Shown here: in pieces, positions 1-33,072 of the stretch | How positions within the stretch are numbered: position 1 is the stretch's first letter | How the letters are laid out: each line of letters begins with the position of its first letter | DNA from: Moorena bouillonii PNG | GTDB lineage: Bacteria > Cyanobacteriota > Cyanobacteriia > Cyanobacteriales > Coleofasciculaceae | NCBI RefSeq assembly: GCF_001942495.1 | Contig: NZ_MKZS01000001.1 | Coordinates: 186,503-219,574 of the forward strand | Direction: 5' to 3' | Length of the DNA stretch: 33,072 bases | Notes under the pieces: model-generated | Database searches by the model: none | Told to the model about the DNA's origin: nothing | What the model saw: the letters and a program-made list of their open reading frames with translations, nothing else | Translations under genes and position numbers: made by a program

Positions 1-1471
1 GTTCTGCCAGAGCCTACCAGGAACTGCCTGGAAATGATGCTCCTAGATTTTCCTGATCGCCCCCAGCTAGAGAATGCTGACCACGCCCAGACAATGGGTC
101 TATTTTTTGCATCAACAGTTCCTCAACTACCGATGGCAGTTCTTTTTGCCAAAGCTTCTCATAGGGAGTGAGCATATAAGCCTGAGGACCACCGACCAGC
201 TTGAGTTCACCAGTCTGAATGTTACGCACATAGATACCTTCATTCTTATCGAGGGGAATTGCTTGACGCTTCTCAACCACTTCCACTTCCACAGGGGGAA
301 TATAATCTTGTGGCCCAGCAATCATCCACAAATCCCCTGGTTGATGAGTAATGACCTGGTCACCTTCCCCCTCATTAAACGCTTCTTTGGATCGAAGCAA
401 TAGTGCTTCGAGCTCACTGAGAACATAGATGTTTTGGATACCATTCTCCAAGGACTCACCGGGATGCAAGAAAAATGATGTTCTCCCCTGGCGAACCTCT
501 CGCATACCCAGCTGAGGTTTACCAGACTCATCAATGGGGTCAACCACAATACACCATTCGTGATCGCTCAGGGTAGTAATCGTGACTTCTCCCACTACAT
601 CTTCATAAACATCGGGAATATGAATTTCTGCATCTTCAAAGGTGACCAACCATTCATCTCCAGCTTTACGCTGACGACCAAAAATATCAGTAAAGGTGCG
701 TTTAGCTTTCAGATGTAATGCTTTTTGTTCTGTCAAAATGTAAGCATTAATAATGCCAATTACTTCTTCATCCACACCAGGTAAATAGGCTCCTTCTTCT
801 CTAACCAGCCATTCTTCACCTGCTCTACGTCTATTCCTTTGACGATCGGTGCAATTCTGCCGTGCTAACAGGTGTAAGGCTTGGTTAGGTTTAATCACCT
901 CAGCTGTTACTGTCTCAACTACTTCCACCTCCACCCGGGGAATATAAGTTCCAGGTCCTTCAAACAGCCATTCATCACCTGCTAAACGGTTAATTGTTTC
1001 AGTCTGGGTTTCTCCATCAACTATTCTCGTAACCGTATCGGTAAAATCCCTAATTGCTCTCAGACGCAGTGCTTGATTGGTCTCGACTACTGCCAGTTGC
1101 GTGACATCCCCTACCAGTTTCTCGTTTGGATAAAGGGGAAACGGATCTTGCGCGAAGCGAATTTCCAGATCACCGTAGCGCAGTCGAATTTGACCATGTT
1201 GATCAGCAATGGGTTGACCGTCTTCATCCCGGAGTAACGGATTAGCAACCACACAATAATACCGAGGCGGCACAATAATCATCGGTTCAGGTTTTAAGAT
1301 CAGCCGCTCGTGATCCCGAAGAGTAATGGTTTGAGGACCAACCTCCAGTCGGGTAACACCGGTGTTGTTGTCTAGCACATGAATAAACTGTTGGGGCTTG
1401 ATGCGAATCACTTCACTAGTTGTCCTAGGCCCTTCCATTTTCTTATCTGTTTTACGCTCAGTTGTAGTCAT
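1..1471 (-). CDS. Major vault protein (MVP) homologue, N-terminal about 485 aa. The 3' end of the gene runs off the left window edge. It has tandem vault repeats.
   Basis: Translation shows repeated modules with the MVP signature, e.g. 'GDEWLFEGPGTYIPRVEVEVVE', 'GEEWLVREEGAYLPGVDEEV', 'GDEWLVTFEDAEIHIPDVYEDVVG' and 'PGDLWMIAGPQDYIPPVEVEVVEKRQAIPLDKNEGIYV'. The N-terminus 'IRIKPQQFIHVLDNNTGVTRLEVGPQTITL...PPRYYCVVANP' is near-collinear with metazoan MVP as I remember it. The ORF is open to position 1, with no stop. Confidence 0.85.
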
Positions 1472-1976
1472 AGTCTTGGTCTAATCGAACTGGATTATTA
1501 AGTTGCCTTTATAGGTCGTAAGTAGTCAGACACAATTAAAGCAGAATTTTTTTACAAGGTAACTTCGGATCAGGAAATTTCACGATTCATGTAGGATTAC
1601 TATAGTTCATGGTTTATCCCTAAAGCCTAATCAACAATCAACTATTTTGTAACCTGACAGCAAATGAACTCCCTATAAAACTAACCTAACCTTTATTTTT
1701 ATGTTCTGCTAAAATAACCAAAACTCGTTATGACTACGTCAAGTTTATGGAGTTGGGAGCAATTTCATCTGCTGATCGGCACATTAAGGATAAAGGATCA
1801 GGGATGAGGGATTAAGAATTAAGGATTAGGCACCCTTAGATTAGGCTTGATACCATTAAGTACTAACAACTATTAACCATTAATCATTAACCCAACCCAT
1901 GAAAATACTAATAATTTTTTTTTACGATATAATCAGGATGATTACTATCTAAGATTAAACAAATAAGGGGCATACT

Positions 1977-2846
1977 ATGAATCGTGATGAATTCCTAAAA
2001 CGCTACGAAGCCGGTGAAAGAGATTTTTCTGGTATTAATTTTAAAAAGGCTAACTTTAAAAGTACTAACCTCAAGGGTGTTTGTCTAAATTATGCTGACT
2101 TGAGTAATGCTGATTTAGAAGAAGCCACTTGGGATGATGTGGATCTAAGTCATGCTAACTTGAGGAATGCTTACCTATATGAAACCACTATCGAAAATTC
2201 CAACCTCACTAAGGCTAACTTGAGTCATCTAGTAGCGTCTGAATCAAACTTGGAAAACTGCGACTTTAGTGGTACTGATCTCAGTTATGCTGATTTATCT
2301 GTAATCTATATGGCTGGTAGTAAGCTCAGGGATGTAAATTTCAGTTATGCTACCTTATGTGAGGTTTACCTAGGTGATTCTGACCTGAGCAATGCTAACT
2401 TCAGTTATTCCCGTATGCTAGGGGTTGATGGCTGGAAAAAAGCTGACCTTAATAGTATAAATTTTACCAAAGCTATCTATACATCATGCACTGAGTTTCC
2501 GACTGGATTTAACCCATCAAAAGCAGGAGCGATCTTTATTTGTGCAGAGGCTGACTTAAGCGGTTTGGACTTGAAAAATATTAACCTAGGTTATGAAGAA
2601 ATGTCTGGCGCTAACCTTAGTCATGCTAATTTGAGTGGTGCAAGACTGTATAATAGTGACTTGAGAGCCGCCAACCTAAGTTATGCCAATTTAGAAGGTG
2701 TTGACTTTCATGATGCTGATTTGAGTGAGGCTAATTTGAGCCATGCTAATCTTAAAAAGGCTAAATTAGCTAAGGCTGACTTAAATGATGCTATTTTCTG
2801 TAACACTATTATGCCTAATGGCAGGATTAGAAATAATAATTGTTAG
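1977..2846 (+). CDS. Pentapeptide-repeat protein
   Basis: About 50 consecutive A(D/N)LSxA(N/D)L-type pentapeptides (ANLSHANLSGARLYNSDLRAANLSYANLEG...). There is an RBS-like 'aaggggcatactATG'. This family is typical of cyanobacteria. Confidence 0.85.
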   Translation: MNRDEFLKRYEAGERDFSGINFKKANFKSTNLKGVCLNYADLSNADLEEATWDDVDLSHANLRNAYLYETTIENSNLTKANLSHLVASESNLENCDFSGTDLSYADLSVIYMAGSKLRDVNFSYATLCEVYLGDSDLSNANFSYSRMLGVDGWKKADLNSINFTKAIYTSCTEFPTGFNPSKAGAIFICAEADLSGLDLKNINLGYEEMSGANLSHANLSGARLYNSDLRAANLSYANLEGVDFHDADLSEANLSHANLKKAKLAKADLNDAIFCNTIMPNGRIRNNNC

Positions 2847-2881
2847 CTAGATCAATACCTTCAACCATCAGGAGTTTTCCA

Positions 2882-4012
2882 TCACAAGCTACATACTTCC
2901 AGGCAATCGAGGATATATCTAGCCGCATCTACAAATACCATATCCAGATACTGAAACTGATCCGGATGGAGCTGGGAGCGCAACTCCTCCCAAGCCTGTT
3001 CATCCTGAATATCTTCATCCCTAAATCCTGCCTCCAGGACTGCTGTATACCTAACATCAATCCCCAGATGCTTAGCCACTATGTGTAAATAGTCCTGCTC
3101 AGTAGGGTCAATTTCCCCATCCGCCGCTGACATATCATAAGCAAAGCACAACAGGAGTAGCTTCTCAGCATCGCTTAGAGGCTTAGTCAAAGTTAACCAT
3201 TCGGGGCAATTAGACGCAGTAGGGTTCCGCTTAACTTGCCTAAGCAGAAGTCCGATTAAGAACGGCCCCAATTGACGCAAATCATCCTCCTCGGGAGGCG
3301 TTAAGCGGTCAATAGTTTTTGCCAGCAGCTGTGTTTCTTCTTCTACCACTTGACCATCCGCCAACATTACTTCCAAAGAAATAGTGACCAAGGCTACCAC
3401 AAAAATCATGGTTGGTGTAATATCTAGTACACTGAGTTGCCTTCCCACCAGACGAGACAAGTATTCAACAACTTGCTGATTTACCAGTCGAATACCTAAA
3501 GCCTCAAACTTTTCTGGTTGCAGCTTTGATTGCAACTCTTTCCAAACCGACTGATCTGGAAATTCCTCACCCTTGAACCAAGCTTCCATCAGCACTGGGT
3601 AGCGGGAATCAATGCCTAGGGAATTTGAGGCTAGCTGTAAATACTGGCTTTCATTGGGGTCAATCGTCCCATCCACCGCTGACATGGCATAGCAAAAGTT
3701 AAGGAGCAAAATTCGCTCTGACTCAGACAGGGAAGTAGTTAGCTTCAACCACTGCTGAGGATTTTGATAAACCGGATTCTTCTCTAGTCCACAAAGCAAA
3801 CGCTGCACCAATTGACGGACATCCCTCTGGGGGGGTACTAATCGCTCAATGGTTTTCTCTAGTAGCTGCTTTTCTTCGTCCTGTACAACGCCATCAGCAT
3901 ACATGACTCCCATCCCAAGGGTTACTAGGGCAGCTAAAAACCTCACAGGCGGTGTTATATTGTCTTGAGTGAGGTTTCGTCCGGTTAGGTGGGACAAAAG
4001 TTCAATAGTCAT
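2882..4012 (-). CDS. Protein with two tandem TerB-like (tellurite-resistance TerB / DjlA-N-like) domains
   Basis: There are two homologous halves of about 185 aa. Each carries paired '...M.ADG...E...L' motifs (VMYADGVVQDEEKQLL / AMSAVDGTIDPNESQYL; VMLADGQVVEEETQLL / DMSAADGEIDPTEQDYL). Each half ends in 'LGID.RY..L.EA.F..E'. Confidence 0.5.
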   Translation of the reverse strand: MTIELLSHLTGRNLTQDNITPPVRFLAALVTLGMGVMYADGVVQDEEKQLLEKTIERLVPPQRDVRQLVQRLLCGLEKNPVYQNPQQWLKLTTSLSESERILLLNFCYAMSAVDGTIDPNESQYLQLASNSLGIDSRYPVLMEAWFKGEEFPDQSVWKELQSKLQPEKFEALGIRLVNQQVVEYLSRLVGRQLSVLDITPTMIFVVALVTISLEVMLADGQVVEEETQLLAKTIDRLTPPEEDDLRQLGPFLIGLLLRQVKRNPTASNCPEWLTLTKPLSDAEKLLLLCFAYDMSAADGEIDPTEQDYLHIVAKHLGIDVRYTAVLEAGFRDEDIQDEQAWEELRSQLHPDQFQYLDMVFVDAARYILDCLEVCSL

Positions 4013-4852
4013 TTTTTAGTTAGCTATTAGGTTTTAGGTATTAGGTTTTGATATGAGTGAGTGGAATCACATCTCAAGGTAACTTGGTTAAGCTAATGGT
4101 TATGCAATCACCCATTCTAAGTTGGCTTAAGGCTTTTGTAATGCGATCGCATCTTGATCACGTTGGTTTAGCAAATAGTCATGGGATCACGAAGACGTTG
4201 AGACGGTAGTAATGCGATTAGCCCGAAGGGCGTTGGCTAGCGAACGCAACCAAGCTTCAGGGAGTAAAGAAGGGATCCCATGGATCATCCCTCCATGACT
4301 TTTATGCCCATATTGATCAATATTCCCCTATCACTAGAAATAAGTTGTCCAATCTCAGTTGGTGTTACACCATCAGACAATATTGCTTGGGTCAATAGCT
4401 CAATAGATACAGAGCTATTGCTTCTTTTCAGGGCAATCAACCGCTGGATTCCATGAATCTTTTCTGCCCATAAAGACATCCTGTTAAGCTTTTTTTGCTT
4501 CTCCAAGAGATGGCGAGAGAGGGCTAATTGGATTTCTATTAATGTCGCTTATTCTGGGGTTAAGTCTAAAAATTAGATTACTCAGGACTTACGCACAGAC
4601 TCCATGGGTAGGGTGGGGAAGGTTTTTACCACCCTACAGGTAGCGTTAAATTGAGGTATTTGCGTAAGTCCTATTACTGTACCAACTTTCCCACCTTTGG
4701 CTTCTATTTGTGCTTTTTTCCGTAGCTCAATCCCACTACTCCTTTTTATCTCTATCGTATTTTTATGCTCGCTTTTGGCAATTAGATATCACCCTTGATA
4801 GGTGTTAGGTTTTGGGTGTTAGGTCTTAGGCTAATAGTGTTAGACTCGGTGA

Positions 4853-7645
4853 GTGCGATCGCATCCTTTGACTAGTGCGATCGCATCCTTTGGCTTAGAT
4901 TTACCCCTTGGTCATGGGATCCCATCAATAGAAGAGAGATTCGTGGATTCTGTAACCGGTAATCCTCAATTGGTAGTGAAAGGGAATCGTCCCCTACTGT
5001 TGGATGAGCTAAAGAAGCTTTGGCTGATTAAGTCCGGTTCTATTGCTATATTTGCCGTTGAGCGTAACGATGGTGTTCTAGAGGGGCGACGCCGTTATCT
5101 ATTCAGCCTGGGAGTGGGTGAGGCTTTGTTTGGGATGGGGGCGAATGCCCAAGACAAGCCCTACACCATGCTTGCTGTGGCAATTGAAGAAGCAACAGTT
5201 TGTCAGTTAACCACTACAGACATAGAACTAAAAGGGAATAGTAATGGTAAAACAGCCACGCTGATTTCCCAAGACATCATTAAGTTGACCGAGAAATGGA
5301 TTGAGGGATTTTCCATCTTCCCTGGTGTGGTTACTCCGTCTACAGTATTGGATACCTCAGCAGTTTACAGTTGGGAGTCCCTACAGTCCCATCTGGATCA
5401 GCTATACAGTAACCTCTACCACTACCTAGCTAAACTCGAACAAACAGAATCAGCTCAAAAACTGACTCAGTTCCAAGAACGGGAACGCCTCAATCATCAA
5501 GTTACTACGGAAGCGATTGCAGAACTAGCATCTGTGATCAAGCCCCAGTTAAAAGAGAGTTTTCAACAGGGAACCCCCCTGTTAATTGCCGCTGGTGCTG
5601 TAGGACGGGCGATGGGGATTCAAATTAACCCCCCCGCCCAGTCAGAAGACCTCAATCGAGTCCGAGAACCCATAGAAGCGATCGCTCGCGCTTCCCGCAT
5701 TCGGATCCGGCGAGTGATTCTACGTGACTACTGGTGGAAGAAGGACAATGGGCCTCTATTAGCCTACACCCGAGAGGATAATCGACCTGTAGCACTGCTA
5801 CCAATGGGGGTGGGTCAGTATGAGGTACTAGACCCAGAATCGGGAAAGCGTGTCCCAGTCAATGCCAATAATGCTAGTTTCGTTGCTCCCATGGCTTATA
5901 TGTTTTATCGGTCATTCCCCGATCAAGCAATTAAAGCCTTAGACTTACTCCAGTTTACTTTTAGAGGTCGTAGCAAAGAGTTAATCACCTTGATGTTGAC
6001 GGGAGTTGCCGCTGCTGTTTTGGGAATGGTCACTCCCCAAGCCACTGCCATTCTGATTGACAATGCTATTCCCGATGCTGACCGGGGATTATTAGGACAA
6101 GTAGGGTTAGGACTGTTAGCAGCTAGCTTTGGCAGTGCCATCTTTCAACTGGCTCAAGGGCTTGCCACCTTGAGATTACAAACGATTAGCGAAGCTACCA
6201 GCCAAGCCGCTGTTTGGGACCGATTATTAAACCTAAGAATTTCTTTTTTTCAGCAATATTCCACCGGAGACCTAATATCCCGGGTTTCAGCAATTTCTGA
6301 AATCCGTAACCGACTCAGTGGCACAGTGATGCAAACCCTATTCACCAGTTTTTTCTCTCTCTTAAATTTGGGTTTGCTGTTCATCTACGATGCCCAATTA
6401 GCCTTAGTCCCGTTGGGAGTGGCATTAACTGCGATGATTGTGACCACTACCTCTGGTATTTTAACCCGGCGCAAGCTAAGACCCTTGCAAAAGCTAGCAG
6501 GAGAAATCTTTGGACTAACGGTGCAACTAATTGTTGGTGTTTCTAAACTCCGGGTAGCAGGGGCAGAAAATCGGGCATTTGCCTACTGGGCTAAATACTA
6601 TACTCAGCAAATTAAGCTGGTGCTGAGTACGCAGTTCATTGAAGACTTACTGAACGTATTCAATACCATACTCCCTACCCTCAGCCAAATGATTATCTTC
6701 GCCGTGGCTGTTCAATCCATTACCAAATCCGAATCTGGGCAAGGTTTATCTACTGGTACATTCCTAGCCTTTAATACTGCTTTTGGAACCTTTATCACTG
6801 GCGCAACTGATTTAAGCAATACCCTAATTAATATTTTAGAAATAGGCATTTTATGGGAACGAACTCAACCGATTTTGGAAGCTACACCGGAACTAGACTT
6901 AAGCAAAGCAGATCCAGGACGGCTTTCGGGGCAAATTAAATTAGATCATGTCAGCTTCCGCTACCGACAGGATGGTCCTTTGATTTTAGATAATATTACT
7001 ATTCAGGCAAACCCTGGAGAATTTATTGCTTTAGTCGGTCCATCTGGTAGTGGCAAATCCACGATTATCCGATTACTGTTGGGGTTTGAAACCTCTGAAA
7101 ATGGCACCATTTACTACGATGGTCAAGACTTATCTGGACTAGATATCTCAGCTGTGCGTCGGCAACTAGGAGTAGTGCTACAAAACGGTCGAATTAATAG
7201 TGCTTCTATGTTCGATAACATTGCCAGTGGTGCTTTAGTTACCATGGATGAAGCCTGGGAAGCTGCAAAAATGGCAGGGTTTGCTGATGATATTGAAGCC
7301 ATGCCCATGGGGATGCACACCGTTATTTCTGAAGGCGGTACCAATCTTTCTGGTGGACAGCGACAACGGCTATTAATTGCCCGTGCCCTAGTCTTAAAAC
7401 CAAGACTATTGATATTCGATGAAGCTACCAGTGCTTTAGATAACCGCACCCAAAGCATTGTTAGTCAAAGTATTGACGAATTGCAAGTGACTCGGATCGT
7501 AATTGCCCACCGCCTCAGCACTATCCGCAAAGCAGACCGTATTTATGTGCTGGAGGCTGGGAGAGTGGTACAACAGGGAACCTTTGAGGAACTGGTTAAT
7601 GAGGAAGGGTTATTTGCGAATTTGATGGCTCGACAAATGGCTTAG
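4853..7645 (+). CDS. ABC exporter (HlyB/bacteriocin-exporter type) with an N-terminal cNMP-binding-like domain. The true start is probably downstream of 4853, around 4940.
   Basis: Walker A 'GPSGSGKST', ABC signature 'LSGGQRQR', Walker B 'LLIFDEATSALD' and H-loop 'IAHRL' are present. The six-TM exporter core ('GVAAAVLGMV...', 'ALVPLGVALTAMIV') precedes the ATPase. The N-terminal roughly 330 aa carries a beta-roll-like 'LWLIKSGSIAIF...VGEALFGMG' motif. The GTG at 4853 lies inside a direct repeat of HIP1-containing sequence and is unlikely to be the real start. Confidence 0.85.
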   Translation: MRSHPLTSAIASFGLDLPLGHGIPSIEERFVDSVTGNPQLVVKGNRPLLLDELKKLWLIKSGSIAIFAVERNDGVLEGRRRYLFSLGVGEALFGMGANAQDKPYTMLAVAIEEATVCQLTTTDIELKGNSNGKTATLISQDIIKLTEKWIEGFSIFPGVVTPSTVLDTSAVYSWESLQSHLDQLYSNLYHYLAKLEQTESAQKLTQFQERERLNHQVTTEAIAELASVIKPQLKESFQQGTPLLIAAGAVGRAMGIQINPPAQSEDLNRVREPIEAIARASRIRIRRVILRDYWWKKDNGPLLAYTREDNRPVALLPMGVGQYEVLDPESGKRVPVNANNASFVAPMAYMFYRSFPDQAIKALDLLQFTFRGRSKELITLMLTGVAAAVLGMVTPQATAILIDNAIPDADRGLLGQVGLGLLAASFGSAIFQLAQGLATLRLQTISEATSQAAVWDRLLNLRISFFQQYSTGDLISRVSAISEIRNRLSGTVMQTLFTSFFSLLNLGLLFIYDAQLALVPLGVALTAMIVTTTSGILTRRKLRPLQKLAGEIFGLTVQLIVGVSKLRVAGAENRAFAYWAKYYTQQIKLVLSTQFIEDLLNVFNTILPTLSQMIIFAVAVQSITKSESGQGLSTGTFLAFNTAFGTFITGATDLSNTLINILEIGILWERTQPILEATPELDLSKADPGRLSGQIKLDHVSFRYRQDGPLILDNITIQANPGEFIALVGPSGSGKSTIIRLLLGFETSENGTIYYDGQDLSGLDISAVRRQLGVVLQNGRINSASMFDNIASGALVTMDEAWEAAKMAGFADDIEAMPMGMHTVISEGGTNLSGGQRQRLLIARALVLKPRLLIFDEATSALDNRTQSIVSQSIDELQVTRIVIAHRLSTIRKADRIYVLEAGRVVQQGTFEELVNEEGLFANLMARQMA

Positions 7646-7721
7646 AAGGATCAATGATTAACCCATGAACTATCATCGCTTTTGGGACAAATCATACCTG
7701 AATTCACCAACACCAAATGTC

Positions 7722-10628
7722 TCAATTGCGCAGAATCAACCGTTGCCGATGAACATGCAACAAACGAAACTCCTGCTGCGCCACCTGGTCCAACATATAA
7801 ATAATATGCTCTGGTCGCAACATGGTGCCATCATTCAAACAACTCCCGACATACCGCAAAACCACCCCAGACTCCGCAACCTCCTCTTCACCATCTTTGG
7901 GTTTTTGGGGTTCCATCACCTCGAACTCAAATAAGCGATCGCATAAATTCACCCACTGCTTCTTACCCGACTTCGTAAACCGCTCCCACCAAATTTCCTT
8001 ACTACCCTTAATTGCTTCAATCCAACCCTGCCAGTCTTCCCAAGACACCGATGACATTACCTCAACTTGAATCAAATACTCAGCCTTTTCCAACAGCTGA
8101 GTTCCAGCAGGTTCCTTCAAATCCACTGCTTCAACCCCATACACCGGAATCTCTTCAGGCAACTCAGACACCAGCCTTTCCCTAAACTCTTCAACTGGCA
8201 TTTTCTGAGTTAACTCAAACTCCACAATCTCCCCACTACTAGACGCTCCCAAGGGCAATGCATTAGCAATCATAATCCGAGCATTAGCCCGAAACCCCCC
8301 ACTATAGCGAATTGGTAGTGACGCCCGTCTTACTGCTCTCTCAAACAGACTTGCCAAATCCAGATGACCCAACAAGGTCATATCCCCCAACTTTCCAAAC
8401 CAAACCCGCAGCCGCTGATCCTTATTAGTATTGGGTTTAAAGTGACCAGCAAATTGGGGAATCTGCGGCGGGTCAATCACCACATTATGACCAAAATCAA
8501 TCCCACACACACCACAGTGAGAACACCCATCAAAGGAACAATCCGGTACTGTTGCTGCATCTAACGCCCGTTGTAAATCTTCCTTGAGCCAATTCTTATC
8601 AATTCCCGTATCAATATGATCCCAAGGCAAGGGAGCATCAAGGGCATCAAGGGTTGAAGGTTGTTCGCGTAGCGTGGCCGAAAGGCCAAGGTTAGTTGGT
8701 TGTTCGCGTAGCGTGGCCGAAAGGCCAAGGTTAGACCGTTGAAGGTTAGACCGTTGAAGGTTAGACCGTTGAAGGTTAGACCGTTGTTCGCCTTTGGCGT
8801 TCCCGTAGGGTAGGTTATTTGGTTGTTCGCGTAGCGTGGCCGAAAGGCCAAGGTTATTTGGTTGTTCGCGTAGCGTGGCCGAAAGGCCAAGGTTAGCTGG
8901 TTGCTCTGAACTTTCAACCTTCAACCTTCCAACTTGCAACTCTTCTAGACCAGCCATCACGTTCCATTCGCCATTTTCTACTTGGCGATATTTCCAGGTC
9001 AGACCTGATGAAGCGATCGCATTTTCCCAAGCAGCAAATGCCCGATCCAAGCTTTCCATCCAGGAGTCCATCCCTGCCCCCAATTCCCAAGCACGGCGCA
9101 CCACCGCACTTAAGCGTCTGTCACCCCGTCCCACGAAATCTTCCATGGCCGAAATCCGAACATCGGTGTAATTAACCTTCACCCCCCTGATCTGAGCAAA
9201 TACTTGTTTGAGCAATTCCTGCTTGCGTTTAAACTCCGAAGTCGATACGGAATGCCACTGGAATGGGGTGTGAGGTTTTGGGGTAAAATTAGAAACAGTT
9301 ATGTTAAACTTAAGGGTTTTTCTGCCTTTGGCACGGCACTCCTGCTGCAACCAACGCACCGTTTCTGCGATCCCCAACACATCCACATCCGTTTCACCGG
9401 GCAAACCAATCATAAAATAGAGCTTGACTTTCTCCCAGCCTTGGTCAAATGCCGTCTTTACTCCCCTGAGCAGTTCTTCGTTAGTCAGTCCCTTATTAAT
9501 AATATCCCGCATCCGCTGAGTTCCTGCTTCTGGGGCAAAGGTCAAGCCACTCTGCCGATTTCCCCCTAGGATATTGGCAATATTTTCATCAAAGCGGTCT
9601 ACCCGCTGACTAGGTAGAGACAGGGAAATATTCTGATCCTTAAGACGATTTTTGATTTCCATCCCCACCGCTGGTAGAGCCAGATAATCCGAACAACTCA
9701 GGGATAAAAGGGAAAACTCGTTATACCCTGTAGCACGCATGCCTTGTTCAATAGCTTCCACCACTTTTTCCGGTTCCACATCCCGCGCTGGTCGAGTCAG
9801 CATCCCAGGTTGGCAGAAGCGACAACCCCGAGTACAGCCCCGTCGCACTTCGATCTTGAGTCGGTCATGAACCGTTTGGATATAGGGTACTAGTCCAATA
9901 GCATAGGCAGGCATCGGTGTAGCCACACGCCGCAAAATCCGCTTCGGCACATCAGGGCGGTTGGGTTTAACTGAGCCATCCTCAGTCATATCATAGAATT
10001 GGGGGACATACACCCCTGGTATCTGAGCCAAATCCAGGAGTAATGCTTCTCGACTTAAGCCAGCTGCTTTGCCTTCTTCGATTACTAAGCCAATCTCTGG
10101 CAACAATTCTTCCCCATCGCCAAGATCAACAAAATCTAAGAAATCTGCATAGGGTTCAGGATTCGATGTCGCCGTTTGTCCACCTGCAAAAATTAGGGGG
10201 ATTTCCGATATATCAAACTCAGCACGGTCTTTCCAGGTCAGGGGAATTTCTGCCAAATCCAACATTTCCAAGATGTTGGTTGCCCCTAATTCATAGCTAA
10301 GGCTAAAGCCAATAATATCAAAATCTTTCAGAGGTCGCCGATTCTCGACAGCAAACAGAGGGGTTTGAGTGGAACGCAATTTAGCTGCCAAGTCTGGGGC
10401 GGGTAGATAGGCGCGATCGCATAATTGCCTAGGTTGAGAATTCAATATATTGTAGAGGATGATATGGCCTAAGTTAGAAGCGCCCACTTCATAGACTTCT
10501 GGATAAGTCAATACCCAGCGTACCTCAGCTTTTTCCCAAGGTTTATGGACTGCTCCCAACTCGTTACCTAAGTAACGGGCAGGTCTGTTGATGTCTGGTG
10601 TTAATATTTCCTCTACAGTGATTGCCAT
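7722..10628 (-). CDS. Radical SAM protein fused to a DUF2344-like C-terminal domain (TIGR03960/TIGR03936-type fusion). It carries an in-frame insertion of about 95 aa derived from repetitive elements.
   Basis: N-terminus 'MAITVEEILTPDINRPARYLGNELGAVHK' and the CxxxCxxC cluster 'CTRGCRFCQPG' identify the family. The ORF is long and conserved-looking. The internal low-complexity segment 'NLGLSATLREQPN' x4 plus 'SNLQR' x4 is encoded by DNA repeats at 8640-8930. Confidence 0.85.
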   Translation of the reverse strand: MAITVEEILTPDINRPARYLGNELGAVHKPWEKAEVRWVLTYPEVYEVGASNLGHIILYNILNSQPRQLCDRAYLPAPDLAAKLRSTQTPLFAVENRRPLKDFDIIGFSLSYELGATNILEMLDLAEIPLTWKDRAEFDISEIPLIFAGGQTATSNPEPYADFLDFVDLGDGEELLPEIGLVIEEGKAAGLSREALLLDLAQIPGVYVPQFYDMTEDGSVKPNRPDVPKRILRRVATPMPAYAIGLVPYIQTVHDRLKIEVRRGCTRGCRFCQPGMLTRPARDVEPEKVVEAIEQGMRATGYNEFSLLSLSCSDYLALPAVGMEIKNRLKDQNISLSLPSQRVDRFDENIANILGGNRQSGLTFAPEAGTQRMRDIINKGLTNEELLRGVKTAFDQGWEKVKLYFMIGLPGETDVDVLGIAETVRWLQQECRAKGRKTLKFNITVSNFTPKPHTPFQWHSVSTSEFKRKQELLKQVFAQIRGVKVNYTDVRISAMEDFVGRGDRRLSAVVRRAWELGAGMDSWMESLDRAFAAWENAIASSGLTWKYRQVENGEWNVMAGLEELQVGRLKVESSEQPANLGLSATLREQPNNLGLSATLREQPNNLPYGNAKGEQRSNLQRSNLQRSNLQRSNLGLSATLREQPTNLGLSATLREQPSTLDALDAPLPWDHIDTGIDKNWLKEDLQRALDAATVPDCSFDGCSHCGVCGIDFGHNVVIDPPQIPQFAGHFKPNTNKDQRLRVWFGKLGDMTLLGHLDLASLFERAVRRASLPIRYSGGFRANARIMIANALPLGASSSGEIVEFELTQKMPVEEFRERLVSELPEEIPVYGVEAVDLKEPAGTQLLEKAEYLIQVEVMSSVSWEDWQGWIEAIKGSKEIWWERFTKSGKKQWVNLCDRLFEFEVMEPQKPKDGEEEVAESGVVLRYVGSCLNDGTMLRPEHIIYMLDQVAQQEFRLLHVHRQRLILRN
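8640..8930. repeat. Composite tandem-repeat element inside the rSAM CDS. It has 39-nt units (ttggttgttcgcgtagcgtggccgaaaggccaaggttag) x4 and 15-nt units (accgttgaaggttag) x4. All units are multiples of 3 nt.
   Basis: Direct reading of the sequence. The same unit families recur at 24085-24385 (intergenic), 18683-18712, 27897-27975 and 29583-29603. Confidence 0.85.
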
Positions 10629-13337: not shown

Positions 13338-14531
13338 ATGACGTCTGAGCAGGATAAACCTGAGGTGGCTAAAATCCTCGAACCATTTAAACCCGCATTG
13401 GCTGAGCATCTGAGCAACCCTGATGTTGTGTTAGACGAGGTACTGGCATGGACTGGCTCTCAGCCTTTTTTGACCCAGAAGCTTTGTCAAGTTATCCTTG
13501 ACTCTAAATCTCCCATCCCTGTTGGTGAGGAAGCTCTCAAAGTCGAAGAACTCGTCAAAACTCACTTCGTTGAAAATTGGGAAACTCAGGAAGCCGCTGA
13601 ACTTCTGCAAGATATTCGTAGTTTCTTGCTCGAAGAACAATTCCTGCGCCTGTATCAGAAAATTTTGCAGGGAGTCATGATGGCAAATGACAGTTGGGAA
13701 CAAAAAGTGTTGCTCAACTCCGGTGTGGTGATTAACCAGGGGGGAAATCTCAAAGTTTCTAACCGTATTTATGAGGCTGTTTTTAATCACAGCTGGGTAG
13801 CTCAAGAGTTAGCACAGTTGACCAGTACAGACTTTTGGCTGGCATCTGAGCTGACCACAGACGCTACTGATGAAGCCATCGCTATCGCTTTTCCTAACCT
13901 ACCAATCACCCCAGTTACTCAAGACCAAGATCTAACAACTGACGAGCCCAAACACCGAGCTCCAACAACTGACGATTCCAAACACCGAGATCTAACAACT
14001 GACAATCCCAACCGATTAACTGTAGTACCTTTAGAGCCAGACCAAGCCACAACCTTGTCTACCCCATCAGCTAGCAGAATCCCATCACCCATTAGTTTTT
14101 GGGGTGGCTTGATCGCCTTGTTTCTAGTCATTACCTTTGGTGTATTTCAGTGTACTAGTTCTAGAAGAGCAGACGATCAACTAAAAAACCTTGCTTCTGA
14201 GGACATATGCAGACGTCAATTTACTAACAGAAAAGAACAAATAGAGCAACTTAGAAAGATAAAGAGTCAAAATAGTGCTTTTCCTAAGCTATGTCAGTCA
14301 ATGTTAGATCAATTGCAGTTTTCCTATGCTATAGAAGAGCTCGCTAGTCAAGGTGAATTCAAGCAAGCTACTATAAATCTTTGTCAAGTATCACAGCGTT
14401 ACTACCAGTTTAGACAAAAATCTCTTCCACGTTTTTTCCGTCGATGGGGTCGGAATAATGAGAATTATGCTAATTGGTTGAAAAACTATCTAATAAAATA
14501 TGATTGTCCCGCTTCTAAATATTTGGGCTAA
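13338..14531 (+). CDS. Hypothetical single-pass membrane protein with 11-aa tandem repeats
   Basis: A 397-aa ORF. The repeats 'DLTTDEPKHRAPTTDDSKHRDLTTDNPNR' come from 33-nt DNA repeats at about 13915-14010. There is a hydrophobic segment 'ISFWGGLIALFLVITFGVF' and a Cys-containing C-terminal domain. Confidence 0.55.
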   Translation: MTSEQDKPEVAKILEPFKPALAEHLSNPDVVLDEVLAWTGSQPFLTQKLCQVILDSKSPIPVGEEALKVEELVKTHFVENWETQEAAELLQDIRSFLLEEQFLRLYQKILQGVMMANDSWEQKVLLNSGVVINQGGNLKVSNRIYEAVFNHSWVAQELAQLTSTDFWLASELTTDATDEAIAIAFPNLPITPVTQDQDLTTDEPKHRAPTTDDSKHRDLTTDNPNRLTVVPLEPDQATTLSTPSASRIPSPISFWGGLIALFLVITFGVFQCTSSRRADDQLKNLASEDICRRQFTNRKEQIEQLRKIKSQNSAFPKLCQSMLDQLQFSYAIEELASQGEFKQATINLCQVSQRYYQFRQKSLPRFFRRWGRNNENYANWLKNYLIKYDCPASKYLG

Positions 14532-27894: not shown

Positions 27895-27975
27895 ACAGGC
27901 TTTGGCCTTTGGCCACGCTGTGCGAACGACGCTGGGACCTAACCCATAAGCTGTTCGCGTAGCGTGTGCGTAGCA
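27895..27975. repeat. Hairpin copy of the GGCCACGCT(A/G)(C/T)GCGAAC dispersed element. An inverted pair ggccacgctgtgcgaac ... gttcgcgtagcgtgtgcg is present.
   Basis: Direct reading. It is related to the units at 8660-8890, 18683-18712 and 29583-29603. Confidence 0.7.
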
Positions 27976-27989
27976 CATTCGCTGATACC

Positions 27990-28117
27990 TGATTGCTGAT
28001 TGCTGATTGCTGATTGCTGATTGCTGATTGCTGATGGCTGATTGCTGATTGCTGATTGCTGATTGCTGGTTGCTGATTGCTGATTGCTGATTGCTGATTG
28101 CTGATTGCTGATTGCTT
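27990..28117. repeat. Heptamer array TGATTGC of about 18 copies
   Basis: Direct reading. It abuts the stop codon of the spike gene. Confidence 0.9.
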
Positions 28118-28955
28118 AATTAATTGATACCGTCTTACCGGTAATTTTAACGTTTTTACTAGCTTTAAAGTGCATCCCCTGCTTAGTTTCAATTTTGCTA
28201 CCATTAGCATTAACTTTCAATGACTTATCTGTCTTCATATCCAGGTTATTCTTGGCAGTAATTTTGATATCTTCCTCGGAAATAATTTCGATACCCTTAC
28301 CACCAAGCTTTAGCTTACCTTCCTTAGACTCAATGGTAATCGAATTATCCTTAGTATTAATAATAATGCTGTTTTTGCCAGTTTTATCAATTACTTCAAT
28401 TTTTTCCTTATCCTTAGTATCATCTAAGCAAATAGTGTGACCACTTTGGGCAATTACTTCAATTTTGCCTTTGTCCTTAGTATCATCTAAACGGATAGTA
28501 TGTTTCTTATGGGAAATGACTTCAACTTTTTCTTCATCCTTAGTATCATCTAAGCGAATAATATGACCACTACGGGACTTAATTGTACGCTTATTAATAG
28601 TCTTTTTTTTACTATCTTCCTTGTCTTTTTCAGGAGACTCAGGTGGTTTATCTTTGCCATTCCATAACCCTCCTAGGATATAGGGAAAATTAATATCACC
28701 TTGTTCAAAAGCTACCAGCACCTCATCATTCACCTCCGGCAAAAAATAAATACCACGGTCATTACCAGCCATGGGAGTTAACACCCTAGCCCAATAACTT
28801 TCATCATTATCTGAGAGCCAAGGAAACTTGACCTTGACTCGCCCTAAGTTTTCCTCATCGCCATTGTTAGTCACTATTCCCATAGTCACCCCATAGAAAC
28901 GACCTCGTATTTCAGGGGGACCTAGCAAATTACTTAGTAAATCGATGCTTGTCAT
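28116..28955 (-). CDS. Spike protein of the gpV/gp5 family (Phage_base_V OB-fold N-domain plus beta-helix repeats)
   Basis: 'YGVTMGIVTNNGDEENLGRVKVKFPWLSDNDESYWARVLTPMAGNDRGIYFLPEVNDEVLVAFEQGDINFPYILGGLWN' is the canonical gpV/VgrG-gp5 N-domain. The C-terminal repeats 'HTIRLDDTKDKGKIEVI' occur three times. Confidence 0.85.
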   Translation of the reverse strand: MTSIDLLSNLLGPPEIRGRFYGVTMGIVTNNGDEENLGRVKVKFPWLSDNDESYWARVLTPMAGNDRGIYFLPEVNDEVLVAFEQGDINFPYILGGLWNGKDKPPESPEKDKEDSKKKTINKRTIKSRSGHIIRLDDTKDEEKVEVISHKKHTIRLDDTKDKGKIEVIAQSGHTICLDDTKDKEKIEVIDKTGKNSIIINTKDNSITIESKEGKLKLGGKGIEIISEEDIKITAKNNLDMKTDKSLKVNANGSKIETKQGMHFKASKNVKITGKTVSIN

Positions 28956-28963
28956 GATGTCCC

Positions 28964-30020
28964 GGTGGTGATAAACATGTAGTGATACAACATTTACTTT
29001 AGCCTAAATAAGACATTTGTTAATCAAAAATATAGTCACTAATATAGTCACTTGACTATCATATTATTAGCAATACTTATATAATTTATTAAAAAATTTG
29101 ATTAAAAAACTCTTATGAAACTGCTATATTTTTATTAGTAAAAAATGCTTTTTCGATAAACAAGCCCTGGTAAACAATGAATGCAAAACCTGATTTAATA
29201 ACCCGACCTAATTGCCCTTACTGCAATTGTGAGCGAACAGTTAAAAATGGCAGCACTCATAATAAAAAGCAAAAATACCTCTGTAAAAACTGTAAGAAGC
29301 AGTTTCTAAAAAATCCGACAAAAAAGCCGATACCATTGTCGAAAAAAAAGATAATAGATGACCTCTTGCTTGAAAAACTATCTTTAGCTGGCATTGCACG
29401 AGTAGTTGGAGTTTCAAAAACATGGCTCCAAAATTATGTTAATAAAAAGTATGCCGAAACTCCCCGAAAAATCAAGGTTTCCGAAAAACCAAAAGGGAAA
29501 ATTACCATAGAATGTGATGAAATGTGGTCTTTTGTTAACCAGAAAGATAATCAGCAATGGATTTGGTTGGCAATTGATGGCCGTTGGCCACGCTACGCGA
29601 ACAAAAAACTAGAGAAATAATTGGAGTTTATATTGGTGATCGTACTCGATACTCGGCCAAAAAATTATGGCAGTCTTTCCCTCCAGTAGTTCGACAATGT
29701 GCTGTGTGTTATACAGATTTTTGGGAAGCTTATAAAACAGTAATACCTAAAAAGCGATGCAGCGCGGTCTTGGGGGTTTCCCCCATGAGCGACTGCATCA
29801 AGACAACGTCACAAGCCAGTAGCAAAAAAAACTGGTAAAACTAATCATATTGAAAGATTAAATAATACCTTAAGACAAAGGATTAGTCGTCTGGTAAGAA
29901 AAACTTTGTCATTTTCCAAAAAAGAACGAAAATCACTTAGGAGCTATTTGGAATTTTATTCATCACTATAATAAGTGTTTGTCAGGTTGATTAGGCCATC
30001 ACTACATGTTTATCACCACC
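28964..30020 (+). mobile_element. IS1-family insertion sequence (1057 bp). It has 23-bp perfect terminal IRs (GGTGGTGATAAACATGTAGTGAT) and an 8-bp target duplication GATGTCCC.
   Basis: IRL 28964-28986 and IRR 29998-30020 are exact reverse complements. Direct repeats GATGTCCC lie at 28956-28963 and 30021-30028. The internal ORFs read 'NCPYCNCERTVKNG...CKNCKKQF' (zinc finger), 'IECDEMWSFVNQKDNQQWIWLAIDG', 'REIIGVYIGDR...YTDFWEAYKTVIP' and '[30 protein letters not shown]', all IS1 InsA/InsB hallmarks. Confidence 0.9.
29177..29985 (+). pseudogene. IS1-family transposase (InsAB-like), broken into three frames by inserted small elements and a poly-A tract
   Basis: Frame changes occur at about 29600, where the element GGCCGTTGGCCACGCTACGCGAAC sits. 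They also occur at about 29760-29800, where the hairpin gatgcag...TTGGGGGTTTCCCCCATGAgcgactgcatc sits, and at the A8 run at about 29822. Confidence 0.75.
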
Positions 30021-31098: not shown

Positions 31099-31950
31099 TT
31101 AGGTTAGATTAAGTACCGGGATGGTCAGAACTTGACCTGGTGTAAGGTTACGGGGATTATTAATCCCATTAGCCTTGGCAATCTCTCGCCAGAAGCTGGG
31201 GTCATTATATTCTTGACCAGCGATGCTGCTCAGGGTTTCTCCACGTCGCACAACGTGAATTGGGTCGTCATCCCGTGCCAGAGAACTGGGCTTTTCCCGC
31301 TCCTCATCTTCTTCAGGGATGAACTGGTGGAAAGTACAGTTGAGAGCGGCCCTGACTGGCATCCCATTAGGGGTAAACATAGTAAAGCGCTGGGTTAGTT
31401 GTCCAAGATACCCCTTAAAAATCAGGTTAAATGCCCCCCACCAGAGTTCACATACAGGGGGACGTTTTAAATCAGAGTCAATCAGAGTCAACTCAAAAAT
31501 CTTATTCGTATACTCTCGAACATCTACAGCATTGGGTGCTGATAATCCATACACACCAGTTAACGATGACGCCGCTGTTGCCGCTCCCGATGCAACTCGT
31601 TTGAGGGGAGAACTGCCGCCCCCGGATATACTTTCAGGTAGTCCCTCGTAGGTGTCAAAAAACAGGTCGAGAGTCAGGGTTGCTGGATCCCCACCAATAA
31701 ATTTAGTATCACCGCGATCGCGGTTTTTGAGAGTTTCATGACGCCATTGGGTTGTCTTGGTAATTTGAATTTCATTAGGATTGAATAGAGGCATTGGTTT
31801 GTTTTCTGGAAAAACCATCTGCCATCTTTTTCCTGGCTGCTCCTTGAGGATGGTTAATTTATCTAACTCTGCCCCAAAGAGGCTACTTGTTAATCCTTTG
31901 GTTTGGTTTAGTGTTTTTTGGGCTAGATTCTTAAACCCTGTTAATGCCAT
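31099..31950 (-). CDS. LysM-domain protein (Cis7/Afp7-like, or a gpU-gpX-like fusion) of contractile injection systems
   Basis: C-terminus 'GETLSSIAGQEYNDPSFWREIAKANGINNPRNLTPGQVLTIPVL' is a LysM domain. The gene sits immediately upstream of gpD-like, 8 nt from it. Its ATG overlaps the stop of the upstream gene in an ATGGCATTAA arrangement. Confidence 0.65.
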   Translation of the reverse strand: MALTGFKNLAQKTLNQTKGLTSSLFGAELDKLTILKEQPGKRWQMVFPENKPMPLFNPNEIQITKTTQWRHETLKNRDRGDTKFIGGDPATLTLDLFFDTYEGLPESISGGGSSPLKRVASGAATAASSLTGVYGLSAPNAVDVREYTNKIFELTLIDSDLKRPPVCELWWGAFNLIFKGYLGQLTQRFTMFTPNGMPVRAALNCTFHQFIPEEDEEREKPSSLARDDDPIHVVRRGETLSSIAGQEYNDPSFWREIAKANGINNPRNLTPGQVLTIPVLNLT

Positions 31951-33072
31951 TGGCTTAATCCCCTCCGCTCACTTTCTATGGTCAGATGCTGCATCAGTTT
32001 ATGGTGTACTTTCTCTACTAGTTCATCCACATCAATGTCCTCCACAGACTGATTAGTTGTAGTAGCGCCTGTTGTATTTTCTGATGCTTTCTGAATCACG
32101 GTATTTGCCTGTAAGCTAGTAGTTGATACAGTTGATATACTAGTTGATACTGATGCACCGTTGACAGATGGCATTCTTTGGATAACTCCAGAGCCATGAT
32201 CACCAATAGATGGCGAACTACTAACTCCTAGTCCGTTGCCAGAAAATGACGTTCTATTGACCCCAGAGGCGGAAAAAATCAGGGGAGCAGATAATTGATA
32301 ACCATCTTTTCCGGAAATTTCTCTAACCACTGGTCGCTCCGGGGTGGGTTGAATCAATGGCTGCTTTCCTTCGGATGGGCTGTTGACTATCTCCTTGACC
32401 ACTGGTCGCTCCGGGGTGCGTTGAATCAGTGGCTGATTTCCCTGGGATGGGCTGTTGACAATCTCTTTGATCACCGGTCGCTCCGGGGTGGGTTGAATCA
32501 GTGGCTGATTTCCCTGGGATGGGCTCTTGACTATCTCCTTGTGAAGCGATCGCTTTGGGGAGCGTTGAATCACTGGCGACTGGGTCAGGTTTCCGGAACT
32601 GCCTAGCGATCGCTTAGACTCTGTTGGCAAAGTGGTATTGGTGTTTTTTAAATTGTTTTTTAAATTGTTTTTTAAATTGTCTGAACTGACCTCTCCCCCA
32701 ACTCCTGCTCTAGTAGGAAAGGAATGTTGAGTACCACCCGTTCCTTCAGGATTAGGAGGGTTAGGCAACTTTACCAACATCTTCTCAGAACTACTTCCAG
32801 AACTACTTGATGACTGGGAGTTAATTGCTTTGGCTTGGACAACTGGCCAGGATAAGTCAGAAGATAGTCTAGTTTTCCTAGAAGGTTCAAGACCAGAAAC
32901 TAGGGGTTTGCTCTCAGAATCTGCTCTGGGGGAAGTCCTCTTAGTGGAGTTTACAAATTTTGCCTGGACAATCAATGGTTTTGTCCCAGATTTGCCCCTT
33001 TCAGAGGGTATTGAATTTGGTAACTGCTCAGTGCAATAAAGATGCTCTATTGACAAGCTGAGAGGGAAAATT
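31941..33072 (-). CDS. Repeat-containing Ser/Pro-rich protein, 5'-partial, possibly a tape-measure-like length determinant of the CIS
   Basis: The ORF is open to the window edge. It has three 20-aa repeats 'KEIVNSPSQGNQPLIQPTPERPVI' and 'NLKNNLKNNLKN', the latter from 15-nt DNA repeats. The conserved-looking C-terminus 'DIDVDELVEKVHHKLMQHLTIESERRGL' is translationally coupled to the LysM gene. The functional call rests on position only. Confidence 0.35.
   Translation of the reverse strand, partial: IFPLSLSIEHLYCTEQLPNSIPSERGKSGTKPLIVQAKFVNSTKRTSPRADSESKPLVSGLEPSRKTRLSSDLSWPVVQAKAINSQSSSSSGSSSEKMLVKLPNPPNPEGTGGTQHSFPTRAGVGGEVSSDNLKNNLKNNLKNTNTTLPTESKRSLGSSGNLTQSPVIQRSPKRSLHKEIVKSPSQGNQPLIQPTPERPVIKEIVNSPSQGNQPLIQRTPERPVVKEIVNSPSEGKQPLIQPTPERPVVREISGKDGYQLSAPLIFSASGVNRTSFSGNGLGVSSSPSIGDHGSGVIQRMPSVNGASVSTSISTVSTTSLQANTVIQKASENTTGATTTNQSVEDIDVDELVEKVHHKLMQHLTIESERRGLSQWH

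Follow-up and report, generated by a model that had tools for sequence, protein, structure and literature searches.

The stretch of DNA analyzed here (the window) comprises 33,072 nt of the cyanobacterium Moorena bouillonii PNG (contig NZ_MKZS01000001.1 of assembly GCF_001942495.1, positions 186,503 to 219,574 of the forward strand), and it contains a gene for a B12-binding radical-SAM protein whose reading frame runs through a block of short repeats. Very probably, this block is not a designed feature of the conserved enzyme but a by-product, left in a tolerant loop by two repeat processes that operate throughout the Moorena genome. The two repeat systems, superimposed on each other, are a tandem array of 15-nt units and insertable 24-nt hairpin elements, which we call E1 and E2. 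A first-pass annotation, made from the sequence alone, had reported a repetitive in-frame block in the gene, and this was borne out by Tandem Repeats Finder, by the count of a 29-mer against shuffled sequences and by translation of the open reading frame (ORF). It missed that two systems are superimposed there and that the block is one case of a genome-wide behavior.

The host gene occupies 7722-10628 on the minus strand and encodes a protein of 968 amino acids (aa), in which a TIGR03960 B12-binding radical-SAM region is fused to a TIGR03936/DUF2344 radical-SAM-associated domain. The ORF is uninterrupted for all 968 aa, including 285 nt of repeats, and orthologues were found across cyanobacteria by protein search. 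The protein scores 601.5 bits against TIGR03960 (curated cutoff, 462.3 bits) and is thus a member of that family; the match is split, with residues 8-550 covering model positions 3-549 of 605 and a second stretch lying beyond the insert. The block had been assigned to a linker between the radical-SAM and DUF2344 domains, and this assignment has to be abandoned: DUF2344 covers only residues 739-907, and the repeats lie between the conserved motifs EWNVMAG and LPWDHIDTG, within the TIGR03960 model and upstream of the invariant LPWDHIDTG...CxHCGxCG block that forms its Cys-rich tail. Judged from these motifs, the repeats occupy a variable loop within the TIGR03960 region and not the DUF2344 junction.

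Where the block lies, orthologues from cyanobacteria other than Moorena have a short stretch of sequence that is variable and unrelated. In Symploca (L106 and L107; L numbers designate sampled loci and alleles), other heptamer repeats, AGGCAGC/AGGCAAA and AGGAGTC, are expanded in frame in the same EWNV-LPWDH loop, which marks the loop as a general repeat-tolerant hot spot. Unrelated low-complexity sequence in orthologues had been considered beforehand as an argument against an insertion; it does occur, in the form of these heptamers, and the interpretation of the Moorena block as an insertion is not undone by it. In an AlphaFold2 model built on alignment A1, the insert residues 542-663 are predicted as coil with a predicted local distance difference test (pLDDT) score of 21-27, which gives weak support to a surface loop; the whole model has a mean pLDDT of 47.8 and a predicted template modeling (pTM) score of 0.33, and much else in it is low too. 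A sequence search of PDB with the orthologue of M. producens PAL-8-15-08-1 gave only a distant match to the radical-SAM core (9ccb_A, residues 257-416), and no solved homologue found by it spans the loop.

By reading the coding strand against eight orthologous alleles, the repeat block proper was resolved as 8649-8933, consisting of nine 15-nt units, four identical E1 copies, one E2 and one 30-nt block in inverted orientation. It lies in a hypervariable segment between EWNVMAG and LPWDHID (8631-8948, minus strand), which is 318 nt long here. The repeats described in the first-pass annotation are therefore present, with their span corrected and with the 39-nt "unit" separated into its two parts, the repeat of 15 nt and the insertion of 24 nt. 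The general form of the 15-nt unit is caaccNNNtaacctt, read as QPxNL or QRSNL, and it is an 8+7 pair of the GGTTGAA/TTCAACC heptamer type. In ascending coordinates, with all 15-nt units on the minus strand and E1 and E2 on the plus strand, the order is as follows: a terminal 15-nt unit at 8649-8663 (coding strand caaccttcaaccctt, read QPSTL), E1 copy 1 at 8664-8687 (TTCGCGTAGCGTGGCCGAAAGGCC, antisense to the gene and read GLSATLRE, orthologous to the single E1 of allele L102), a 15-nt unit at 8688-8702 (QPTNL), E1 copy 2 at 8703-8726 (identical to copy 1), four perfect 15-nt units at 8727-8786 (plus strand aaggttagaccgttg, read (QRSNL)x4), E2 at 8787-8810 (TTCGCCTTTGGCGTTCCCGTAGGG, read PYGNAKGE), a 15-nt unit at 8811-8825 (QPNNL), E1 copy 3 at 8826-8849, a 15-nt unit at 8850-8864 (QPNNL), E1 copy 4 at 8865-8888 (copies 3 and 4 both being exact matches), and a 15-nt unit at 8889-8903 (QPANL; coding strand caaccagctaacctt, which is also the unit of an intergenic array near 24.2 kb). 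The block ends with 30 nt of the same heptamer-type repeat in opposite orientation (8904-8933, minus strand; coding strand gttggaaggttgaaggttgaaagttcagag, read VGRLKVESSE). E1 and E2 each fold as two adjacent mini-hairpins (z = -2.4 to -3.0).

Tandem Repeats Finder detected the composite as a 39-nt period at 8659-8903 (6.1 copies, 72% matches) and the four central units as a perfect 15-nt array at 8727-8786 (100% matches). The 29-mer GTTCGCGTAGCGTGGCCGAAAGGCCAAGG occurs four times with no mismatch, at 8663, 8702, 8825, and 8864, compared with 0 expected from 100 shuffles. The sequence CTAACCTTCAAC has 16 matches in the window in total (0.24 expected): three in the gene (minus strand), 12 with at most one mismatch in the intergenic array at 24203-24379 (plus strand), and one with one mismatch at 24157-24168 (minus strand), so that the sharing of the 15-nt unit with the 24.1-24.4 kb array, as first annotated, is confirmed. 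The translation of the block includes NLGLSATLREQP four times and (QRSNL) four times. The unit lengths of 15, 24, and 39 nt are all divisible by three, and translation also upheld the first-pass observation that the 968-aa ORF stays open for this reason. Several other identities for the region were considered. The ORFs 8561-8917 (minus strand) and 8836-9171 (plus strand) are the repeat read in other frames and were rejected as an opposite-strand gene, and removal in the manner of an intein or intron was rejected with no evidence supporting it, the 3n length and stop avoidance favoring read-through. An Rfam search of 8300-9300 gave two chance-level matches only and no known RNA family.

The best protein matches are all from Moorena (Moorea), with orthologue lengths of 882-971 aa. 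At the DNA level, nine Moorena alleles share a gapless core of 2589 nt with 96.6-98.3% identity, and the length difference is confined to the repeat segment, which ranges from 60 to 327 nt, is uniquely organized in each allele and is always in frame. In M. producens PAL-8-15-08-1, only EELQPSNLQPSTLNALD, i.e., two 15-mers, is present at the site, giving 882 aa against 968 aa, an 86-aa gap; the 30-nt inverted block is also missing there. The JHB and SIO1G6 alleles have long pure 15-mer arrays of 17 and 16 units, and E2 is present only in the window allele among the nine. The first-pass proposals of an expansion relative to orthologues and of length polymorphism are thus well founded, and the accompanying proposal of phase-variable switching is not, because every unit is 3n and no frameshifted allele occurs among the nine. 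An exact-protein look-up found no identical record of the window allele elsewhere. As for the neighborhood of the gene, TnpB/OrfB_IS605 genes adjoin it in some strains (L100, 1-723; L103, 5084-5751) and the downstream ABC-transporter neighbor is replaced in others, showing that this neighborhood is rearranged between strains.

The alleles also define E1 as an insertion. Within the radical-SAM gene, E1 is found at no fewer than three separate sites across alleles, in both orientations and in two codon phases, in addition to the one E2 insertion. Antisense E1 is located at unit junctions in codon phase 0 in the window, L102, L099, and L104 (read GLSATLRE or GQKATLRE) and inside a unit in codon phase 1 in L103 (WPKGHATR) and L100 (WPKGHPTG). 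Sense E1 lies in the inverted block of L099 and L101 and is read FAKRGQKA, with TAG changed to AAG and the sole stop of the element thereby gone. Excision of exactly 24 nt restores an intact 15-mer in every case, with the boundary AACCTT^CAACC on the coding strand, equivalent to GGTTG^AAGGTT. No E1 insertion has a target duplication, and the orientation of the element is always coupled to that of the target. Between the orthologous E1 copies of L103 and L100, the small hairpin shows a compensatory pair of changes, CGC...GCG vs. CCC...GGG (CGCTACGCG vs. CCCTACGGG). Composite 39-nt units have been amplified in tandem: the window has two pairs of neighboring units, L099 (SIO4A1) has five units and L078 has nine.

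The hairpin unit had been described as dispersed in the window. Of the exact 29-mer, no more than the 11-nt head TTCGCGTAGCG is dispersed there (18686, 27954, and 29591 on the minus strand), each time with a different hairpin; what does hold is that the exact element is dispersed across Moorena genomes. A scan with CGCGTAGCGTGGCCNNNNGGCC, using one genome per species, gave at least 97 stretches, of which 86 belong to four Moorena genomes and, among the matches listed, the remainder are single chance occurrences in GC-rich bacteria, lacking the characteristic flanks. In a scan of 72,556 plasmid records, the sole match was a Moorena plasmid. In about 640 kb of sampled loci, we counted at least 131 exact E1 copies. 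Most read ggttgTTCGCGTAGCGTGGCC-loop-GGCCaaggtt within GGTTGAA-type arrays, and others either sit within the loop of a second copy or lie in GCGAT...ATCGC sites resembling highly iterated palindrome 1 (HIP1). Examples of these contexts are ggttgTTCGCG...GGCCaaggtt, gtggccGTTCGCG...GGCCaaaaggcc, and gcgatcGCGTAGCGtgacc...ggtcaatcgc.

The E1 superfamily has a modular build: the invariant 11-nt head, a 3-bp mini-hairpin containing GTAG, is followed by a variable self-complementary 5-bp hairpin. Since a MAFFT alignment of the hairpin variants (A2) was mis-registered, with loop gaps at the 3' end, and was circular because its sequences had been selected for complementarity, a census anchored on the head (A or T followed by TCGCGTAGCG) was used instead. 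A perfect 5-bp hairpin follows the head in 179 of 224 cases and a hairpin with one mismatch in a further 16, the remainder being mostly nested copies. Eleven different stem sequences were found; many stems that are always paired behind an invariant head constitute strong structural covariation. The hairpin subfamilies seem to track the flanking array: TGGCC with GGTTGAA, TGCGC or TGTGC with AGCTGAT, and TCGGC with AAGTCTG. In the GGCC hairpin of the 86 Moorena loci and the window, loop sequences are matched by their complements (TTTT 60/AAAA 11, TATT 11/AATA 9, and TAAA 7/TTTA 2), and GAAA (21) and CAAA (13) lack such a partner; it looks as if the loop could be inverted across the palindromic stem, e.g., by template switching. 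Classification as a miniature inverted-repeat transposable element (50-500 bp with terminal inverted repeats and a target site duplication) was rejected, because E1 is 24 nt long and has neither.

Approximately 19% of the exact E1 copies (25 of 131) are read through in long ORFs of 11 different genes. Hosts confirmed by Pfam are a nonribosomal peptide synthetase (NRPS), a CurM-like polyketide synthase (PKS), a CheA-like kinase, a P-type ATPase, TnpB, an M23 peptidase, and a STAND NTPase. In genes, the antisense orientation is commoner, as is to be expected, because the GGTTGAA array orientation is closed by TGA in most frames. The CurM-type PKS, with a ketosynthase, acyltransferase, ketoreductase, acyl carrier protein, sulfotransferase (ST), and hydrolase (KS-AT-KR-ACP-sulfotransferase-hydrolase; L067, M. 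producens 3L scf45985, partial ORF 3-5648), has a mosaic at residue ~1574, in the linker between ST and thioesterase (TE), in the order E2-like PDSNPKGE, (QPSNL)n, and E1 read as GQKATLRE. E2-like peptides in other genes are PYSNAKAE, PDSNPKGE, and AYSNPKGE. In the NRPS of Moorena sp. SIO3H5 (L012, ORF 1771-7998, residue ~312), a sense nested double E1 is read through (...RSRSVAHSRSVAFWPRP...).

Filled and empty sites are also found in unique coding sequence away from arrays. Two TnpB paralogues with 81% identity, L057 and L074, differ at ggctg^atggtt by exactly the 24 nt of E1, which L074 lacks, and L006 and L095 differ by the eight residues GLSATLRE. L074 has in addition, at about 6030-6060 where L057 is empty, a third 24-nt two-hairpin element, approximately TAGCGAAGCTTGCCCGAAGGGCGT (AGC-gaa-GCT plus GCCC-gaa-GGGC), with an E1-like architecture and a different sequence. 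Because such pairs lie at unique non-array sites, recombination between arrays cannot explain them, and they support genuine insertion of E1 at what appears to be a loose target, TG^A(A/G/T)GG.

These observations can be arranged in four steps. The EWNVMAG-LPWDHID loop holds a 15-nt tandem array, whose copy number differs among strains in the way expected from slipped-strand or unequal recombination. E1, and in one case E2, entered the array exactly at GGTTG^AAGGTT, leaving the target unduplicated and in an orientation fixed to that of the target; the pattern is seen directly in the alleles, and the insertion mechanism is what we infer from it. The resulting composites of 15+24 = 39 nt were then duplicated in tandem. 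Lastly, purifying selection would purge variants that break the frame or add stops, so that only stop-free 3n configurations remain, and the peptides themselves (GLSATLRE, WPKGHATR, FAKRGQKA, and PYGNAKGE) would be incidental. Judging from this variability, the block is most likely functionally irrelevant for the radical-SAM enzyme. For the copying of E1, our preferred guess is a hairpin-recognizing, single-strand-based insertion that would be supplied in trans. We regard it as possible, somewhat short of an even chance, that E1 and related elements still move today as target-specific (TG^A[A/G/T]GG) mobile DNA of 24 nt, among the smallest insertable units, with a GTAG head and an exchangeable hairpin that perhaps chooses the type of target repeat, moved in trans by a single-strand (HUH/RAYT-like) or RNA-based activity.

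A specific version of this copying step, which we consider unlikely, is that E1 is a GTAG-tagged repetitive extragenic palindrome (REP) mobilized via single-stranded DNA by a REP-associated tyrosine transposase (RAYT; HUH/Y1). RAYTs bind REP hairpins in single-stranded form and cut them at GTAG (PMC3733652), and the invariant head of E1 has GTAG immediately 5' of a hairpin with a covarying stem. E1 resembles REPs and REP doublets forming hairpins (REPINs) in these features and in being short, and some REPs also lie in genes (PMC3116915, PMC3733652). Its oriented insertion at a sequence-specific target with no target duplication is as in IS200/IS605-type transposition. On the other hand, E1 copies stand singly or follow one another in direct tandem, whereas REPINs are typically inverted doublets; E1 is also shorter than the majority of REPs, its target site is precise, and it is intragenic in the proportion given above. 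A RAYT-like gene does exist in Moorena (L031, 144-656, minus strand; Y1_Tnp match, 43% identity to an E. coli RAYT probe), but it has an in-frame TAA stop and is flanked by REP hairpins of the GTAGGGTGCG type, not by E1; an eight-copy tandem repeat of ~135 nt at 660-2000 of the same locus contains these hairpins as well. L031 is a classical REP/RAYT system coexisting with the E1 family, and its pseudogene was rejected as the cognate transposase, since it has this different flanking repeat and is not tied to E1. The ordinary IS200/IS605 TnpA beside TnpB in L074, identified using an IS608 TnpA probe, cannot be tied to E1 either, and no E1-flanked RAYT gene was present among the ~640 kb of sampled loci. 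Furthermore, for the copying of small dispersed repeats (SDRs) in Nostoc, Elhai et al. are said to have favored an RNA intermediate.

It is quite improbable that E1 and E2 are not insertable at all and owe their spread solely to passive processes (tandem duplication, and gene conversion or recombination between homologous heptamer arrays), with the apparent target specificity reflecting a shared flanking repeat. The flanking of most copies by GGTTG...AAGGTT array units, the correspondence between hairpin subfamily and array type, and the clear tandem amplification of composite 39-nt units in the window, L099, and L078 would all be accounted for in this manner. The exact 24-nt filled/empty differences in unique coding sequence with no array (TnpB of L057/L074; L006/L095) would not, nor would the copies nested inside the loops of other copies; and a canonical E1 in paralogues that are only 81% identical implies recent arrival.

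An adaptive role as a contingency locus, in which the repeat block is kept because changes in copy number tune or switch the enzyme by phase variation or linker length, is very improbable. Copy number and composition do differ in every strain, and repeats recur at the loop in other genera, so that the locus is like simple-sequence contingency loci in having an in-gene tandem repeat with hypervariable copy number between strains. It differs from them in that its units are multiples of three, which makes on/off switching by frameshift impossible. In addition, two units suffice in the PAL strain; the peptides, read from one set of DNA elements in three frames and two orientations, are unrelated and not conserved; and these elements are also found between genes and within 11 or more unrelated genes. 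An assembly artefact, i.e., a mis-assembly or chimeric join of repeat-rich reads, is hardly credible. Assembly of short tandem repeats is admittedly difficult, and no other record contains the exact allele. However, a homologous array, its frame and flanks undamaged, is found at precisely this position in eight independent assemblies, among them the complete genomes of PAL-8-15-08-1 (9.67 Mb contig) and JHB (9.65 Mb contig), and an ORF open over 285 nt of repeats is unlikely for a random mis-join.

Several points weigh against our interpretation of the block as a by-product of two repeat processes on a tolerant loop. That the block is tolerated and neutral is inferred from variability alone, and the AlphaFold model is too poor, as its mean pLDDT indicates, to prove that the loop is on the surface. 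The alleles were obtained as full-length annotated proteins, so that frameshifted alleles would escape, and several of them come from short-read metagenome-assembled genomes in which repeat copy numbers may be collapsed. The correlation between hairpin subfamily and array is also expected from array-to-array recombination. Finally, searches of the ~640 kb of sampled loci with the IS608 TnpA and E. coli RAYT probes linked no enzyme to E1.

Among known repeat systems, the closest to E1 are the SDRs. Elhai et al. reportedly described SDR1-8 in 2008, with lengths of 21-27 nt, from Nostoc punctiforme and relatives. E1 resembles them in size (24 nt), in its high dispersal, in presence/absence among close relatives with no target duplication, in heptamer embedding, in self-nesting, in the use of HIP1-type GCGATCGC sites, in a conserved hairpin with compensatory changes, and in occurrence inside genes. 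It differs in its modular build of invariant 11-nt head plus variable hairpin and in its host, Moorena being a non-heterocystous marine filamentous cyanobacterium and not one of the heterocyst-forming Nostocaceae. We have therefore filed E1, which was set against the SDRs by descriptions only, as SDR-like, that is, as a new family and a new host lineage of a known kind of repeat and not as one of SDR1-8. A literature search on Moorea/Moorena dispersed repeats returned nothing relevant, and according to one SDR-citing paper (among PMC5861425, PMC4390886, and PMC3116915) no SDR-like repeat was found outside Nostocaceae.

The 15-nt array has possible relatives of its own. Short tandemly repeated repetitive (STRR) sequences, or tandem heptamer repeats, were reportedly described in filamentous cyanobacteria by Mazel et al. 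in 1990. The array is like them in its head-to-tail short units, in the presence of the same unit in the intergenic array at 24197-24380, and in strain-variable copy number; the in-gene unit differs as a 15-nt (8+7) composite that keeps the frame, the pure heptamer arrays of the window all being intergenic. Heptamer repeats in cyanobacteria, including those in Moorea producens proteins, have been reported (PMC4679880). As to insertion into genes, Rickettsia palindromic elements (RPEs) are selfish palindromes inserted in frame in protein-coding genes (PMC10969869, PMC3733652). E1 is likewise a palindromic repeat in frame in many unrelated functional genes, where it is translated, presumably at permissive surface positions. 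RPEs are ~100-150 bp long and encode a conserved peptide in one frame, whereas E1, only 24 nt long, can be read in various frames and in either orientation and moves along with tandem arrays.

The window holds further repeats. The intergenic 15-mer array, AACCAGCTAACCTTC in 12.3 copies (24197-24380, plus strand), lies between an OmpA-family gene and fmt, and directly upstream of it an E2-like element, TTTCCCTTGGGCGTCCCTTGTAGGG (24128-24152, plus strand), lies within GGTTGAA-type units. The region 24086-24380 mirrors the in-gene architecture, with GGTTGAA-type units plus the E2-like element followed by 12 15-mers of inverse orientation, and forms a long imperfect inverted repeat. The three E1-superfamily members found by their heads are TCGGC-ttc-GCCGA (18686-18708, plus strand; intergenic, beside an AAGTCTA heptamer array), TGTGC-gta-GCACA (27954-27976, plus strand; intergenic, beside a GCTGATT heptamer array), and TGGCC-aac-GGCCA (29579-29601, minus strand; 3-nt loop, not in an array). 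Period-7 arrays lie at 1783, 4799, 14549, 18644, 25444, 27773, and 27981, all outside ORFs of at least 150 aa, and the only in-gene array has the period 15/39. This distribution, with period-7 arrays intergenic and the in-gene period divisible by three, is consistent with a frame filter. Longer in-frame tandem repeats occur in other ORFs: 28116-28955 (minus strand, 63 nt x2.9), 31941-33056 (minus strand, 72 nt x3.5), and 13338-14531 (plus strand, 30 nt x2.9). A Phage_base_V/VgrG-like OB domain in the first of these suggests that a gene cluster of the phage-tail-like or contractile injection kind occupies the right end of the window.

At a single orthologous position of a conserved gene, the radical-SAM locus offers naturally occurring filled and empty sites that are cleanly defined. 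It defines the boundaries of E1 (24 nt) and its target (GGTTG^AAGGTT) with no target duplication, and this constrains models for the copying of SDR elements of 21-27 nt. If E1 and its relatives are indeed active mobile DNA, Moorena would be the first documented host outside Nostocaceae, and the radical-SAM loop, with E1 at three or more sites among strains ~2-3% apart, would serve as a natural reporter of that activity. E1-type elements of Moorena are routinely read through in real protein genes, including those for NRPS and PKS, which bears on annotation, on the design of heterologous expression constructs, and on the use of the arrays as strain markers.

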